Source of the DNA: a virus
Taxonomy: Duplodnaviria; Heunggongvirae; Uroviricota; Caudoviricetes
Strand: one strand, 5' to 3'
Length of the DNA stretch: 5,005 nucleotides
Virus record (IMG/VR): IMGVR_UViG_2695420809_000013
Shown: positions 1 to 4,850 of the stretch, in pieces
Layout of the letters: each line of letters starts with the position of its first letter
Numbering within the stretch: position 1 is the first letter of the stretch
Notes under the pieces: model-generated
What the model was told of the DNA's origin: nothing
Seen by the model: the letters and a program-made list of their open reading frames with translations, nothing else
Database searches by the model: none
Translations under genes and position numbers: made by a program

Positions 1-1074
1 TCATTTGTTGATTTCAATTTTGTCCCATTCTCTCCCTCGGCTGTCCCTATACCGCGCCGCCATTGAATCTGATTTATGCCCGAGAAGACGTTGAGCAAAC
101 TTATCGCCAATCTGATTCCGGTATAGCCTCGCCGACAGGCTACGCAGTTCATGGAATGTTGGCGGGTCTCCATCAAATGAGAGTCCAGATGCATTTCTCG
201 CCTTTGTAAAATACTTAGATACTGTTTTCGGGGAAAGCGGTTCGTGATGCGTTGATGCAATTATTGTTTCACTGCCGCTGACCTCCCTGCATTTCTGTAG
301 TGTATCGGCCAATGAGATATTGAGCGCGTCAATCGTTAGCGTCAGCGGAATGGCGAGCTTAGCCCCTGTTTTACCCTGTTCAATGTGAAGATGGTTGTCG
401 TTTATGTCTGACCATTTCATTTTGCACAAATCGCCGACTCTCTGACCTGTAACGACGGCCAAATCCATCGCAAGCCTCAGCCAGATTGGGAGAGGTTCGG
501 CTGCATGGTGAATCGCGACATACTCATTAGCTGTCAGCCTTGAGCGCCTTACTTCTGACTTTGCTGTGCGGGTTGCTGTTACCGGATTCGTAGCCACATG
601 CCCCTCGGCTATTGCCTCACGAAAAACGTCAACAAGGGTTGACCTGATTAATTTTGCGGAAGCCGCTTTACCTTCTGCTACGTAGGTGTTTAGCATTGCT
701 GCCACCTCTTTCGTTGATATGTCAGCGAGCGGTTTGTCCGGCAATTTTCTTCGGATTGCCCTGATTTTGCTGGCGTAGTCGAGTAGAGTTTTCGGCCTGA
801 TACCCCTCTCGCTGAGGATTGTTTCATATCGGTCAAGCCACGCATGAAGAGTGATTGCGTCAGCGCCTTTAATTCTGTCTATCAGTGACTCACGCCTGTT
901 CCCGGATAGCAACTCAATATTGGCCTGTATAGCTTCAGTGATTGCTATACGTCTGTCTCTGCCTAATCCGAACTCTTTACCCGTCCTTGGGTCCCTGTAG
1001 CAGTAATATCCATTGTTTCTTATATAAAGGTTAGGGGGTAAATCCCGGCGCTCATGACTTCGCCTTCTTCCCAT
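1..1074 (-). CDS. int: Lambda-family tyrosine integrase (site-specific recombinase Int), complete 357 aa
   Basis: Full-length ORF; N-terminus MGRRRSHERRDLPPNLYIRNNGYYCYRDPRTGKEFGLGRDRRIAITEA and C-terminal region HELRSLSARLY...LLGH...Y match phage lambda Int as I recall it (catalytic-domain R, H-x-x-R and Y motifs present). Start overlaps the end of xis, as in lambda. Stop codon is at window positions 3..1. Confidence 0.95.
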   Translation of the reverse strand: MGRRRSHERRDLPPNLYIRNNGYYCYRDPRTGKEFGLGRDRRIAITEAIQANIELLSGNRRESLIDRIKGADAITLHAWLDRYETILSERGIRPKTLLDYASKIRAIRRKLPDKPLADISTKEVAAMLNTYVAEGKAASAKLIRSTLVDVFREAIAEGHVATNPVTATRTAKSEVRRSRLTANEYVAIHHAAEPLPIWLRLAMDLAVVTGQRVGDLCKMKWSDINDNHLHIEQGKTGAKLAIPLTLTIDALNISLADTLQKCREVSGSETIIASTHHEPLSPKTVSKYFTKARNASGLSFDGDPPTFHELRSLSARLYRNQIGDKFAQRLLGHKSDSMAARYRDSRGREWDKIEINK

Positions 1075-1270
1075 TTTTGATCCTCTTCAAAAGGCTACCT
1101 GTTACTGGTCGATTTAAGTCAATTTTTACCGCTGATTCGTGGAACAAATACTCTCTTCCATCCTTAACAGGAGGAGGGAATATCCTGCACTCGCGTACCC
1201 ATCGACGAACTGTTTCAAGGCTTCTTGGGCGCCGCTGGCGTGCGTTCCACTCCTGAAGTGTCAAGTACAT
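1052..1270 (-). CDS. xis: Excisionase Xis (72 aa)
   Basis: Translation MYLTLQEWNARQRRPRSLETVRRWVRECRIFPPPVKDGREYLFHESAVK... is nearly identical to lambda Xis from memory. The 3' end overlaps the int start by 23 nt (lambda-like arrangement). GGAG lies 8 nt upstream of the ATG on the minus strand. Confidence 0.93.
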   Translation of the reverse strand: MYLTLQEWNARQRRPRSLETVRRWVRECRIFPPPVKDGREYLFHESAVKIDLNRPVTGSLLKRIKNGKKAKS

Positions 1271-1360: not shown

Positions 1361-1672
1361 TTATTCGATGCGCACTCCTGGTATTTCGCCTTTTGATATT
1401 GCTAAGTCATAAATTTGCGCGGCACTATACCCATCTCGCATCCATGAATCTAAGGCGCGAACAGCCTCGCTACGCTTTTTATCTTCTCTCTCATTTTTGA
1501 TATCAACGAGGACATCAACGCAATTAAGGCAAATGTGGATTTTGTCCTTACATTCGATCATGGCGGCTTTGCCATGATTTCCGCCACACAGTGAGCATAA
1601 ATCTTCAGGGGCTGGCTGGTATTTCTGTAACGTTAGAGGGTTGAATGTTGAACAGGCCATAATCATCTCCAT
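1361..1672 (-). CDS. Hypothetical small Cys-motif protein (CxxC...CxxC, putative zinc ribbon), in the Ea8.5-equivalent position upstream of xis
   Basis: ORF of 103 aa with CSLCGG and CLNC motifs. The likely true start is the third in-frame ATG at 1660 (GGAG 6 nt upstream on the minus strand), giving 99 aa. Resemblance to lambda Ea8.5 is positional and motif-level only, not verified. Confidence 0.55.
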   Translation of the reverse strand: MEMIMACSTFNPLTLQKYQPAPEDLCSLCGGNHGKAAMIECKDKIHICLNCVDVLVDIKNEREDKKRSEAVRALDSWMRDGYSAAQIYDLAISKGEIPGVRIE

Positions 1673-1895: not shown

Positions 1896-2594
1896 TTACG
1901 GCACTGCGTTAATCAGATTACAAATACCTCTTTTGGCAGGGTCTGAATTCAACTTCTGAAAATTGGCGTTCAACATAGCCGTGTGTAAGTGATTCTCAAC
2001 CTCAAAGAATAAGTCGATTTTGCCCTCTTTGGCTGCCTGTTTCTTCCAAATATTCACTTGGTCATCAGCAATACGACTGGCGCAAGTGAACAAGAACGAA
2101 CTGCCTCTAGGAATGGATGTCGTGCTGTAATACTCACCATCTACTTCTACATATTTAGCTCGGAATGACTCTAAGGTTAGCTCATTGCCGTTCTTGACCG
2201 ACTTAGCTTCTGCCTTACTTGTTTCTTCCTGCTCTTCAGAATGTTTCTGCGCCGACGTGGGTATGTCATTGGCCGCTGTTACGCTGACTGAACTCCCCAA
2301 ACCTTTGAGGCCATTAATTTGGATAAGATAAGCCAGCTCCAGAGCCTTATTATCAGTGAGTTTTCCACGCATATTTACCCACTGACGTTGAACCATTTTT
2401 AGGGTGTCTGCGTTCTCTGGGTTTCCTTTGAGGGCACTAGAATAGGCAGAGCTAAGCTGTTCGTCTAATTTTGACAGACGTTCGTTATCGCAGATTTTAT
2501 GTTCGATTGCTGTCGAAGCCTTTTGGCAGTCAAAGCTGGCTGCAAATGCACCCGGCGATGCCACTAACAATGATGCCAGTAGGATATTTTTCAT
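1896..2594 (-). CDS. Secreted protein with an N-terminal LprI/DUF1311-like domain and an uncharacterised C-terminal domain (moron-like cargo gene)
   Basis: Start assigned to the second ATG (2594-2592) because GGAG lies 6 nt upstream on the minus strand; the ORF-track start at 2621 falls inside the putative promoter. Signal peptide MKNILLASLLVASPGAFA|AS with an AxA cleavage motif and no lipobox. Mature N-terminus CQKASTAIEHKICDNERLSKLDEQLSSAYSSAL...VQRQWVNMR fits the DUF1311 pattern (C..A....E..IC....L...D..L...Y......QR.W) from memory. Four Cys residues suggest periplasmic disulfides. The region is visibly more AT-rich than its flanks. Confidence 0.75.
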   Translation of the reverse strand: MKNILLASLLVASPGAFAASFDCQKASTAIEHKICDNERLSKLDEQLSSAYSSALKGNPENADTLKMVQRQWVNMRGKLTDNKALELAYLIQINGLKGLGSSVSVTAANDIPTSAQKHSEEQEETSKAEAKSVKNGNELTLESFRAKYVEVDGEYYSTTSIPRGSSFLFTCASRIADDQVNIWKKQAAKEGKIDLFFEVENHLHTAMLNANFQKLNSDPAKRGICNLINAVP

Positions 2595-2599
2595 ATTCA

Positions 2600-2672
2600 C
2601 TCCATAAATACAAAAGCGCATTACTATAGCACTTAACCGATCGCTTATCTCGCCCGTTCGTCATTCTTATCT
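2600..2672 (-). promoter_or_regulatory. Candidate sigma70 promoter (extended -10) for the LprI-like gene, with upstream direct repeats
   Basis: On the minus strand, TGcTATAGT (the -10 hexamer TATAGT corresponds to plus 2628-2623, with TG at 2631-2630) lies about 30 nt upstream of the ATG. The -35 is weak (GAGATA at a 17-nt spacer). A 7-bp direct repeat CTTATCT on the plus strand at 2644-2650 and 2666-2672 (AGATAAG on the minus strand) overlaps and lies upstream of the -35 region. Confidence 0.35.
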
Positions 2673-2724
2673 AACCAGAACATGCGACTGCCACAGCACA
2701 TGTCGAGGATTGCTGCATGTCCAG

Positions 2725-3162
2725 TCACTGGTTGCCTCCTTTGCGAAGCTGGGCGGCTAACTCATCACATATGTGCGTCAAAGAGCAAAGTTTGATTGAT
2801 GGGTGTTCGCGCATCATCTCAACCCCCTGCGCCCGCACTTCAGACAGGAAAGAGTCGGTGGCTGGGGTTTCAACACGGATGCTGTCGCGCAAGATGAAAA
2901 ATGCATTGAGCATTCCAGTCTCTGGCACTTCATCCTGATGCTTCTCATACTCATCAAGAGCCTTCATCATCTCTGCTCCGAATGGTTGAGGGTGCACAGA
3001 CTTCAGCTCCGCATTCTCCGCCGCCAGCGCCGCGCACTTGGCCTCCGCTTCAGCAAATTTGCGTACCAGATATTCAGCATTTGTTTCGTTAACCTTTAAA
3101 TCACATGGGATGCATTTACCTTTCAGAAATCCATCCATCTCAATTAGTGTCATTCGTTTCAT
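2725..3162 (-). CDS. Hypothetical protein (145 aa from the ATG at 3162; the ORF-track start at 3180 is a GTG)
   Basis: Long ORF in the same orientation as the operon. The ATG at 3162-3160 overlaps the TGA of the upstream small ORF (ATGA coupling) and has a GGAG/GGGAAG purine-rich stretch upstream. Contains a predicted coiled-coil-like stretch ([19 protein letters not shown]). No family assigned. Confidence 0.6.
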
Positions 3163-3323
3163 TTCTTCCCACTCCGCCACATCGCATTCAGATATTTGTT
3201 TTGATTCACTGACGGAGAAGAATTTCTCTTAAGCAATTCCTCTCTCGATGGCATTGGCTTTACGCGTTGGCGAATAATCATTTCTGCCGGAAGAATGCCG
3301 GGATTGTATGCAAGTCCTCTCAT
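3159..3323 (-). CDS. Hypothetical small protein (54 aa; start ambiguous, alternative ATG at 3341)
   Basis: The ATG at 3323 is preceded by GAGG with an 8-nt spacer, and the stop overlaps the next gene start in ATGA fashion, suggesting real translation. The longer 104-aa track ORF (start 3473) would overlap the preceding gene by about 140 nt in another frame and is less likely. Confidence 0.35.
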
Positions 3324-3333
3324 GGTAAATTCC

Positions 3334-3627
3334 TCAGTCATTACTGATAGCGCCATAGCGTGATCGATAATTACGCAGGCGCGGGTCAATTTCAGGGAAG
3401 TGGGTATATGTGGCTTTGCGGAATGGTCGGATTGATGTCTGGTAAATTCGCTCGCGTTCTTCTTTCTCTGCAAGCCATATACAATGGCGAAATTCCTTTT
3501 CCTCTTTCGTTTCCTGCGGTAGCGACATTATCCGATCGTAGTTTTTTCTGAATTTATCCAGCACCTCCGATACGGAATTGCCGGAACAGCGGCGCGGGTC
3601 ATCCGCACCATACAGAGGCGCTGGCAT
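3334..3627 (-). CDS. Hypothetical protein (97 aa)
   Basis: Strong SD AGGAG 6 nt upstream of the ATG (3627), 13 nt after the ssb stop. Charged protein rich in K/E/R; no family recognised by eye. Confidence 0.6.
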
Positions 3628-3640
3628 GATTTTCTCCTGA

Positions 3641-4147
3641 TTAAATTGCGTGAATAGCGTGACGAGGGAAGGGGAGAGTTACTGGTGCAAAGGGTATATC
3701 GTCGTCAAAATCCATCGGAGGTTCGTTGTGTTGTGCTGGTGATGATTGCTGCTGTGGCTTCTGTGATTGCCTGCTGGCTGCTTGTTGTTTGCTGTCGCCA
3801 ATGCCGCCAAGCATTTGCATCACGCCATTAATTCCGACATGAACCTCGGTTGTGTAACGGTCTTGCCCTGACTGGTCTTTCCACTTTCTGGTTCTCAGCA
3901 TTCCCTCGAAATAAATCTGATCACCTTTTTTCACATACTGCCCCACGACCTCAGCCAGTTTCCCGGATACAGCAACACGATGCCATTCAGTCAATTACTT
4001 TTGCTCGCCAGTATTTTTATCTCGCCATTGTTCTGACGTGGCTATTGTCAGGTTAGCGAACGCTGTTCCTGATGGTGAGTATCGAACTTCCGGGTCTTGT
4101 CCTACCCGACCAAGGATAATCACCTTATTTATCCCGCGAGAACTCAT
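3641..4147 (-). pseudogene. ssb: Single-stranded DNA-binding protein (SSB) gene interrupted by an in-frame TAA and carrying a 15-aa extension past the canonical DDDIPF C-terminus
   Basis: N-terminal part [50 protein letters not shown] (4147-3998) and C-terminal part [63 protein letters not shown]...[11 protein letters not shown] both align with E. coli SSB as remembered, in the same frame, separated by TAA at 3997-3995 where E. coli has Glu. The reading frame then continues past IPF as [15 protein letters not shown] before the stop at 3643-3641. The start has a GAGGTGGAG SD and overlaps the rusA stop (ATGA). Confidence 0.8.
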
Positions 4148-4527
4148 TTGCTCCACCTCTTGCCAGTTTTTATGTTGCTTATAATTGATTGAGATACACC
4201 CATGACCGGTCCCCACTCAACCAGCATTCTTTTCACCTGACTGTCGTCTTCCCACACACCCGCGTGGGTCAGGGCGTCAAACAGCGCCTTGTTATAGTTG
4301 TCCAGATCGCGGATCCGGTTATCCGGAGGAAACAACACAATCTCTACTGAAGCTGGTGCCGACGTTGGTTTCGGCAAACGACGTAACTGCTCAACTATTG
4401 CTGCGCACGCCGCGCTCTGGAATTTTCGCCCCGCCGCGCTTATCAGGCTCTTACCAGCAAACGCCCCTTTGTTGGGGTGTCGCCAGTACGTGTTCACGCT
4501 GGGCGGAAAAGGCAGAATCAGCTTCAT
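4144..4527 (-). CDS. rusA: RusA-family Holliday-junction resolvase (crossover junction endodeoxyribonuclease)
   Basis: [13 protein letters not shown] and [26 protein letters not shown] match E. coli RusA motifs ([39 protein letters not shown]) from memory, including the catalytic Asp residues. GAGAGGGG SD upstream; the ATG overlaps the stop of the upstream gene and the stop overlaps the ssb ATG. Confidence 0.8.
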
Positions 4528-4850
4528 ACTTTCAGGCCCCTCTCATGTAACCAGTGGGCTGCACGCAGCCTGCTGTTTTCCTCACCGGCAAGCAGTGCGC
4601 GGATAATCCCGACCGCCTCGCTGTCGTCGTCCTTCATCGCGGTATGAAGCGTTATCCCCCGGGCCACGCCACGCTTTATCGTGATGACGCCTTTTTTCTC
4701 CAGTGCTCGAAGATGCTCCACCGCTGCATTCACTGAACGGTATCCCAGCATGGTTGCCACCTCCTGATTGGTTGGCGGGAAGCCACGTTCTTTCTGGTAA
4801 GAAATCAGCATATCCAGCACCTGCTGCTGGCATTGAGTTAACGTCGTCAT
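4524..4850 (-). CDS. LexA-family DNA-binding-domain protein lacking the S24 autopeptidase domain (108 aa)
   Basis: LTQCQQQVLDMLISYQKERGFPPTNQEVATMLGYRSVNAAVEHLRALEKKGVITIKRGVARGITL parallels the E. coli LexA N-terminal winged-helix domain ([65 protein letters not shown]) as recalled. The C-terminal 35 aa have no Ala-Gly cleavage context and no Ser/Lys dyad domain. GGGAG SD; translationally coupled to flanking genes. Confidence 0.75.
   Translation of the reverse strand: MTTLTQCQQQVLDMLISYQKERGFPPTNQEVATMLGYRSVNAAVEHLRALEKKGVITIKRGVARGITLHTAMKDDDSEAVGIIRALLAGEENSRLRAAHWLHERGLKV

Follow-up and report, generated by a model that had tools for sequence, protein, structure and literature searches.

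A conserved abc2-DUF2737 pair and a variable EaE/gp37/Oad2-family gene at the distal end of a P22/HK97-type early-left region

Introduction

What do the three small open reading frames (ORFs) that lie between ssb and a moron gene in a Caudoviricetes prophage encode, and how does this cluster relate to those of other phages? We addressed this question for IMGVR_UViG_2695420809_000013 (Caudoviricetes), a stretch of 5,005 nucleotides (nt) that we call the window and whose numbering is used for all positions below. A preliminary description of the same DNA had recognized three translationally linked ORFs of 97, about 54 and 145 amino acids (aa), could assign none of them to a family, and proposed all three as candidates for uncharacterized phage-host interaction proteins. 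Here we report that the trio almost certainly consists of the coupled abc2, DUF2737 and EaE-like genes of P22/HK97-type phages. The region is best explained as the distal end of the early-left recombination module of such phages, with the three genes co-transcribed. The three proteins are ordinary members of known families, of which one is well characterized, one is known only as a DUF, and one has newly been connected with activity against OLD. What the preliminary description gave as three ORFs is now a defined module made up of a RecBCD hijacker, a small protein under strong constraint and a single allele of a family that is hypervariable.

Results

Three coupled genes of the early-left region

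On the minus strand the window carries, in order, int, xis, a 103-aa ORF, an LprI-family gene, the three ORFs, ssb, a RusA-like gene and a LexA-like gene. The features of the trio and its immediate flanks are as follows.

3641-4147, minus strand: ssb, directly upstream of abc2
3634-3638, minus strand: AGGAG ribosome-binding site of abc2, 6 nt before the ATG at 3627, read from the sequence
3334-3627, minus strand: abc2 (ORF97, 97 aa, anti-RecBCD protein 2), assigned by PF11043, phrog_656, identity to P22 and PDB 8b1t_A
3332-3335, minus strand: GAGG ribosome-binding site of the DUF2737 gene, 8 nt before its ATG and overlapping the abc2 TGA stop (3336-3334)
3159-3323, minus strand: DUF2737 gene (54 aa; P22 ORF56, HK97 gp38, HK620 hkaI), assigned by PF10930, phrog_1117, dN/dS and RefSeq
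3175-3172, minus strand: GGAG before ORF145, read from the sequence
3159-3162, minus strand: ATGA stop-start overlap, the ORF145 ATG (3162-3160) lying over the DUF2737 TGA (3161-3159)
2725-3162, minus strand: gene of the EaE/HK97 gp37/Oad2 family (ORF145, 145 aa), assigned by phrog_614, phrog_492 and BLASTP
1896-2594, minus strand: LprI-family lipoprotein gene flanking the trio

The translational linkage of the three ORFs, their AGGAG and GAGG sites and the ATGA overlap were all confirmed in the sequence, and the earlier labels of the flanks were correct, with ssb on one side and the LprI-family gene as the moron on the other. The three ORFs are real genes and not chance ORFs, since each matches a protein family, the ratio of nonsynonymous to synonymous substitution rates (dN/dS), taken against P22, comes to 0.10 in abc2 and 0.09 in the DUF2737 gene, and RefSeq annotates the same three coding sequences in Escherichia coli Z1323HEC0423 (NZ_CP148334), which is identical to the window over the trio region. 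The same evidence agrees with the signs of real translation from which the preliminary description had started. A consensus scan found neither a terminator nor a minus-strand promoter between 2700 and 3700, no Rfam family matched the window, and four antisense ORFs checked against PHROG gave zero matches.

The operon position was expected to hold phage-host interaction functions, and this was borne out. The statement that no family could be assigned does not stand, as profile searches placed ORF97 in Abc2, the small ORF in DUF2737 and ORF145 in the EaE/gp37/Oad2 family; the structure predictions that had been suggested alongside, made with AlphaFold2 (AF2), gave no functional lead for ORF145 or for the DUF2737 protein. 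The term "uncharacterized" remains apt for DUF2737 and for the specific target of ORF145, and no longer for ORF97, whose homology to P22 Abc2, a known early-left protein, is the kind of finding that the preliminary description had itself named as one that would overturn it.

ORF97 is an Abc2 homologue

ORF97 very probably functions as an Abc2 anti-RecBCD protein, the homology being established here and the mechanism taken from the literature. It aligns over its full length, residues 1-97 to model positions 1-97, with Pfam PF11043 (Anti-RecBCD_p2; E-value (E) 6.1e-64, 212.7 bits against a curated cut-off of 25), matches phrog_656, "abc2 anti-RecBCD" (E 2.6e-55), and is 93.8% identical to P22 abc2 by tblastn. 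Residues 1-97 also match PDB entry 8b1t_A (E 2.2e-58), the Abc2 chain of a cryo-electron microscopy (cryo-EM) complex with RecBCD (PMC9836394). Within the RecC-bound residues 3-66, ORF97 departs from P22 Abc2 only at L32R and A65S, and four further substitutions fall in the disordered C-terminal third. Pro68, which most likely occupies the active site of host PpiB (PMC9836394), is kept (...SIRP68FRK).

P22 Abc2 (PF11043; PDB 8b1t, 8b1u) and the window protein are both 97 aa long and have the same operon position. The window gene lies in the early-left recombination module, downstream of annealing-protein and SSB genes, an order also seen in P22, HK97, HK75 and HK620; its upstream partner is the SSB gene (a Rad52-type recombinase in the closest genome), whereas that of P22 is erf-abc1. 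Abc2 modulates late steps of the RecBCD reaction without blocking the enzyme, and is reported to be unstable if expressed alone (PMC9836394). The window protein would accordingly be expected to re-programme RecBCD, whose response to Chi and loading of RecA would be diverted to the advantage of the phage annealing protein.

An Abc2 variant from an Stx2a phage (LC616077, 2501-2797) is 62% identical to that of the window, the DUF2737 protein there being 91% identical. The first 12 and last 17 residues of this variant are unchanged relative to the window, which points to a recombination breakpoint within abc2 or else to Abc2 termini that are under strong constraint.

The trio recurs with different recombinases

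The gene order is erf-abc1-abc2-ORF56-eaE in P22 and erf-gp40-abc2-gp38-gp37 in HK97, and the trio is also found in ST104, HK75, HK620 and an Stx2a phage. It accompanies recombinases of three types, namely Erf (P22, HK97), Rad52-type (HK75 and the closest E. coli genome) and Sak4 (HK620, HK629), and it occurs with Abc2 variants that are 62-68% identical as well. Neither the abc2-DUF2737 nor the DUF2737-EaE adjacency is absolute: an inserted gene separates abc2 from DUF2737 in HK446, an HNH endonuclease gene separates DUF2737 from the EaE-like gene in HK629, and in HK639 the EaE-like gene lies beside ren, with neither DUF2737 nor abc2 in the stretch fetched.

The small ORF encodes a constrained DUF2737 protein

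The small ORF matches PF10930 (E 1.4e-29, a score of 102.2 bits where the cut-off is 25, alignment to positions 1-52 of the 53-position model) and phrog_1117 (E 3.8e-36), and its product shares 93% identity with HK97 gp38 and 74% with P22 ORF56. P22 ORF56, HK97 gp38 and HK620 HkaI have equal junctions with abc2 and with the EaE-like gene, and the window protein is an ordinary member of this group. Its dN/dS against P22 is built on a dN of 0.21 and a dS of 2.27, the latter saturated.

The preliminary description had left two candidate starts, 3323 and 3341, and comparison across phages decides for 3323, giving a predicted protein of 54 aa. Four lines of evidence lead to this assignment. The PF10930 and phrog_1117 models both begin at the Met encoded at 3323. 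P22 is without the upstream ATG (AATAAC for AATGAC) yet retains GAGGAG-N8-ATG. In HK446, an unrelated gene upstream of DUF2737 overlaps the DUF2737 ATG equivalent to 3323. Lastly, the upstream ATG is also lost in one of 80 related viral loci, which were fetched by DUF2737 and thus form a sample chosen by DUF2737 identity.

The family is small and narrow. It comprises 138 clusters at 90% identity, every named one from Escherichia, Shigella or Salmonella, and only 98 clusters emerged when the profile was searched in full against 1.84 billion representatives. Distant members of 53-58 aa retain the core motif and differ in their N-terminal halves. Two of these distant relatives could be placed, each on one short metagenomic contig, and they lie in other phage-like early regions with neither abc2 nor an EaE-like gene as neighbour. 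Because these relatives lack both neighbours, our weak guess is that DUF2737 may be a separate small host-factor binder acting alone. A role as an obligate partner of Abc2 or of the EaE-like protein is weakened by the same two relatives and by the insertions that flank the gene in HK446 and HK629.

We also considered the small ORF as a non-coding linker or terminator-bearing element, a candidate countered by the dN/dS of 0.09 and by the protein motif kept in distant relatives. Other searches with DUF2737 were uninformative: the PDB sequence search returned only chance-level matches, NCBIfam and PADLOC held nothing relevant, and a literature search for "DUF2737" returned a single incidental mention. 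Its AF2 model has three short helices (predicted local distance difference test (pLDDT) 66, predicted template modelling score (pTM) 0.22).

The HK620 record annotates a terminator, tL3, within hkaI at 2933-2945, equivalent to about 3218-3230 of the window. A short inverted repeat, GAGAA-ATTC-TTCTC, occupies this position in the window; it lacks a T-run and was not called by the consensus scan.

ORF145 belongs to the family of EaE, HK97 gp37 and Oad2

ORF145 matches phrog_614 (E 1.1e-46) and phrog_492 (E 3.6e-30), and by BLASTP it is similar to HK97 gp37 (E 9e-36), to HK446 gp27 over the full length (E 3e-35, 44% identity, 25% gaps) and to P22 EaE (E 3e-10) through the segments EAKCAAL, TPATDAFL and AAQLRKG. 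Synteny agrees with these matches, as ORF145 follows abc2, is joined to DUF2737 by the ATGA overlap and precedes xis-int. P22 EaE, HK97 gp37 and HK620 HkaH, all early-left "ea" proteins, share family and position with ORF145; P22 EaE, unlike ORF145, is without the N-terminal module described below, and the variable cassettes differ in every comparison. More than 7,700 relatives of 92-300 aa are present in databases, mostly named "hypothetical protein" and in a few cases "Eae protein" or "ead/Ea22-like", and the exact ORF145 protein occurs on 291 contigs. Neither Pfam nor NCBIfam gave a family match (in NCBIfam, nothing relevant at E up to 0.1), and the PDB sequence search returned only chance-level matches. 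AF2 predicts an all-helical protein in which residues 26-56 form a long helix (pLDDT 71, pTM 0.34), and a Foldseek search of this model against the PDB gave no fold match (best E 1.6).

The relative that bears on function is HK446 gp27, or Oad2. Its gene is reported to have come out of a genomic library as the one that relieves the toxicity of OLD in ΔrecB cells, and the protein to be sufficient to abolish P2 OLD defence, to bind OLD directly and to keep the OLD tetramer from being activated; it was described as "related to P22 EaE" (10.64898/2026.07.10.737580). OLD is an abortive tRNase that fires on compromised RecBCD, and OLD and some retrons respond to interference with RecBCD or recombination (10.64898/2026.07.10.737580). 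We identify HK446_027 as Oad2 because of its syntenic position, after abc2, the inserted Sf6 gp24-like gene and DUF2737, and because its identity to HK75_28 is 54%, the figure stated in the preprint. Oad2 and ORF145 both follow abc2 and an ATGA-coupled DUF2737 gene, and the features common to the two proteins are the N-module, the core of the coiled coil, the anchor TPATDxFLxEVRAQ and the tail QLRKGGNQ. ORF145 is classed as a member of the EaE/gp37/Oad2 family but, as its variable cassettes differ from those of Oad2 and the HK75 homologue reportedly did not suffice against OLD defence, not as an equivalent of Oad2.

ORF145 carries two variable cassettes beside two conserved genes

Alignments A1 and A3 divide the family into an N-module, a coiled coil, a variable segment V1, an anchor, a second variable segment V2 and a conserved tail. 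Together with clustering of the cassettes, they give the following map of ORF145.

Residues 1-38: constant N-module
Residues 39-51: short coiled-coil variant
Residues ~52-98: variable cassette V1
Residues 99-112: anchor
Residues 113-138: variable cassette V2, followed by the tail LRKGGNQ

Across the family, the N-module is nearly invariant, spans 38 residues and starts with MKxM(S/T). The coiled coil exists in three alternative lengths, of which ORF145 has the shortest. The anchor between V1 and V2 is TPATDAFLAEVRAQ, and the tail that follows V2 is (A)QLRKGGNQ. Oad2 and its homologues from the OLD-sensitive phages HK75 and HK97 are near-identical from the N-terminus through the coiled coil and differ in V1 and V2, where OLD specificity probably lies. 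The V1 and V2 of ORF145 are its own, distinct from those of Oad2, HK75 and HK97.

The 80 loci fetched by DUF2737 show how differently the three genes vary. DUF2737 is 96-100% identical across them, and abc2 lies directly upstream in every locus (80/80) with an almost invariant 10-nt junction, whose GAGG is kept in all 80 and in P22, where it reads GAGGAG; in 70 of the 80, abc2 is at least 96% identical to the window copy. The N-module gene begins at the ATGA overlap in 78 loci. The coupled downstream gene, however, encodes 64 distinct proteins that are 39-100% identical to ORF145. This contrast between the variable gene and its conserved neighbours is real, though its size is biased by sampling on DUF2737 identity.

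The anchor is present in 50 of the 64 distinct proteins, and these 50 combine 24 types of upstream segment with 18 types of V2 in 38 combinations. One upstream type is paired with six different V2 types, and the V2 of the window occurs with at least four different V1 cassettes. Because cassettes are common to different partners, the comparison shows a reassortment of cassettes beside two conserved genes. A four-gamete test on the cassette types, a small sample, found no complete quartet. In proteins d15, d23 and d29, encoded at related loci, the N-module is joined to C-terminal parts of Ea22/EaD-like and DUF551-like type. Of all features of the locus, the architecture of shuffled cassettes beside the conserved abc2 and DUF2737 genes holds the greatest interest, and it can be tested directly.

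Discussion

Our best overall explanation, which we consider fairly probable, is that the trio combines a RecBCD-hijack gene, a fast-evolving counter-defence gene and a separate small early protein. ORF145 would bind and neutralize a host or prophage immune protein, probably a sensor of interference with RecBCD or recombination. The N-module and coiled coil would form a scaffold displaying two swappable cassettes between conserved anchors, and the V1/V2 cassettes would set the specificity. The proposal that ORF145 is a counter-defence inhibitor, drawn from one preprint and from the diversity pattern, is plausible and falls just short of probable; that its target is P2 OLD itself is very unlikely. 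A more general proposal would make the EaE/Oad2 family a combinatorial anti-immunity scaffold in which cassettes are exchanged at anchors and ribosome-binding-site junctions and each pair neutralizes a different host or prophage immune protein that senses interference with RecBCD or recombination, ORF145 being an inhibitor of new specificity for something other than OLD and DUF2737 being a separate effector against a conserved host target. We offer this as speculation that is unlikely to hold as a whole.

Several observations weigh against a counter-defence role for ORF145 and against its deployment at this locus. The source on Oad2 is a single unreviewed preprint of July 2026, in which the HK75 homologue, 54% identical to Oad2, was not sufficient against OLD defence (10.64898/2026.07.10.737580). 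Both variable cassettes of ORF145 are unrelated in sequence to those of Oad2, and ORF145, at 145 aa, is without the LESKLETALRECRSAGITIDN coiled-coil segment, 21-28 residues long, of the 175-aa Oad2. Since the cassettes differ and the 54%-identical HK75 homologue was insufficient, the function of Oad2 is not transferable to ORF145 by homology. PADLOC gave no relevant match for ORF145, and the two AF2 models, at moderate to low confidence (pLDDT 71 and 66) and with no PDB fold match, support no argument about a binding surface. At the level of the prophage, the closest complete genome, NZ_CP148334, has pseudogene fragments and an inverted late-type block upstream of kil, with no N, PL or cI. 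Position 3997 of the window is A where Z1323HEC0423 has C, changing codon 51 of ssb from GAA (Glu) to an in-frame TAA (3995-3997). Because the prophage is rearranged and ssb carries this stop, normal early expression at the locus is uncertain.

The last two points lead to a rival explanation, that the trio at this locus is silent cargo of a defective, rearranged prophage and serves no present function, whatever its origin. The loss of N, PL and cI and the truncated pseudogenes in the closest genome, the in-frame TAA in the window ssb, a methyltransferase remnant after ORF145 and the 1999 bp of the closest genome that are missing from the window all speak for it, and we regard it as a serious contender that is nevertheless somewhat unlikely, as all three ORFs and their ribosome-binding sites are intact, the exact ORF145 protein recurs on 291 contigs, and co-oriented upstream genes could supply transcription. 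A different possibility concerns the role of ORF145 itself, which might be a developmental protein of the Ea22/EaD type that biases the lysis-lysogeny decision. Lambda Ea22, which is reported to favour lysogeny (PMC7093339, PMC10834534), resembles ORF145 in lying in the general exo-xis, or "ea", region and in its coiled-coil architecture; some homologues of ORF145 are named "ead/Ea22-like family protein" at NCBI, and the fusions of the N-module to Ea22/EaD-like and DUF551-like parts point the same way. A direct relationship between ORF145 and lambda Ea22 is, however, ruled out on sequence (BLASTP E 0.22, no significant similarity), ORF145 has no NCBIfam or Pfam match, and the one close relative with a tested activity inhibits OLD, so that we judge a developmental role improbable.

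DUF2737, ORF145 or both could instead be accessory factors of the Abc2/annealing-protein machinery, comparable to P22 Abc1 or Arf. The fixed 10-nt junction that places abc2 directly upstream of DUF2737 in all 80 sampled loci would fit such a role, as would the association of the trio with three recombinase types and the reported instability of Abc2 alone. The extreme shuffling of ORF145 cassettes would be unexpected in a partner of conserved RecBCD or SSB, however, and gp27 alone sufficed against OLD. The insertions on either side of DUF2737 (HK446, HK629), the HK639 EaE-like gene that occurs without abc2 or DUF2737, and the two distant DUF2737 relatives, on single short metagenomic contigs, without both neighbours also argue against dependence among the three genes, and we find an accessory role quite improbable.

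If the V1/V2 cassettes do set the specificity of a counter-defence protein, as in our favoured explanation, the hundreds of EaE-like alleles that lie beside abc2 in E. coli and Salmonella prophages would be a catalogue of inhibitors and a way to find, and to match, the immune systems that guard RecBCD. This is not a new kind of biology; the practical value of the locus is a clear and cheap experimental design.

Gene boundaries and neighbouring genes

The downstream end of ORF145 is coupled to a further gene, of which only the start remains.

2735-2741, minus strand: AAGGAGG Shine-Dalgarno sequence within the codons of the RKGGNQ tail, followed by a GTGA overlap (2728-2725)
2645-2728, minus strand: N-terminal remnant of a DNA methyltransferase gene, 27 codons with a GTG start, coupled to the ORF145 stop

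The RKGGNQ codons read AAAGGAGGCAACCAGTGA, a consensus Shine-Dalgarno sequence that precedes the GTGA overlap, and the following gene of HK75 has its GTG start at the same overlap. The remnant matches phrog_11564 (E 1.3e-11, residues 1-26 to model positions 1-26 of 117) and appears to be cut off where the block of the LprI-family gene begins. In some variants of DUF2737 the protein terminates in ..WRKGGNQ or ..WRKGGSQ, a tail characteristic of EaE-like proteins. These features suggest that the gene boundaries are linker sequences at which lambdoid modules recombine. In related loci too, the conserved tails of DUF2737 and EaE-like proteins, ..MWRSGKK and ..LRKGGNQ, are encoded by DNA that doubles as a Shine-Dalgarno sequence and overlap start for the next gene.

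In the closest complete genome, E. coli Z1323HEC0423, the prophage adjoins mdtA and is rearranged, and the gene order is Rad52-type gene, HNH, ssb, abc2. Missing from the window are 1999 bp of NZ_CP148334, which include the greater part of the HNH gene together with the Rad52-type gene, kil, a 56-aa ORF and pseudogene fragments. Their absence, at junction 4204/4205, creates a chimeric minus-strand ORF (4144-4527) that joins a RusA-like N-terminus to the C-terminal tail of HNH, and this junction is absent from 185,579 GTDB representative genomes. The window ssb is either a pseudogene or the site of a sequencing or editing difference, and for the differences between the window and NZ_CP148334 as a whole we cannot say whether they are of natural origin. 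We also considered whether the parent prophage carries the OLD trigger Gp33 and rejected this, the 56-aa protein (L001 8328-8498) being unrelated to HK75/HK446 gp33. The rearranged minus-strand block of NZ_CP148334 (L001 8727-11444; window 4524-4850) carries genes for RusA, an N6-adenine methyltransferase and PerC, and a 108-aa protein consisting of the LexA DNA-binding domain only is encoded in this block and at window 4524-4850.

Beyond the LprI-family gene, the window ends in the integration genes.

1052-1270, minus strand: xis
1-1074, minus strand: int

Between xis and the LprI-family gene, an ORF of 99-103 aa (1361-1672, minus strand) matches phrog_3680 (E 1e-68) and shows a weak similarity, below the cut-off, to a ClpX-type C4 zinc finger (PF06689, E 0.015). 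The moron itself (1896-2594, minus strand) encodes a signal peptide and an N-terminal LprI lysozyme-inhibitor domain (PF07007, E 2e-5; phrog_4675, E 3.5e-94), and a terminator-like hairpin lies 3' of it at 1891-1864.

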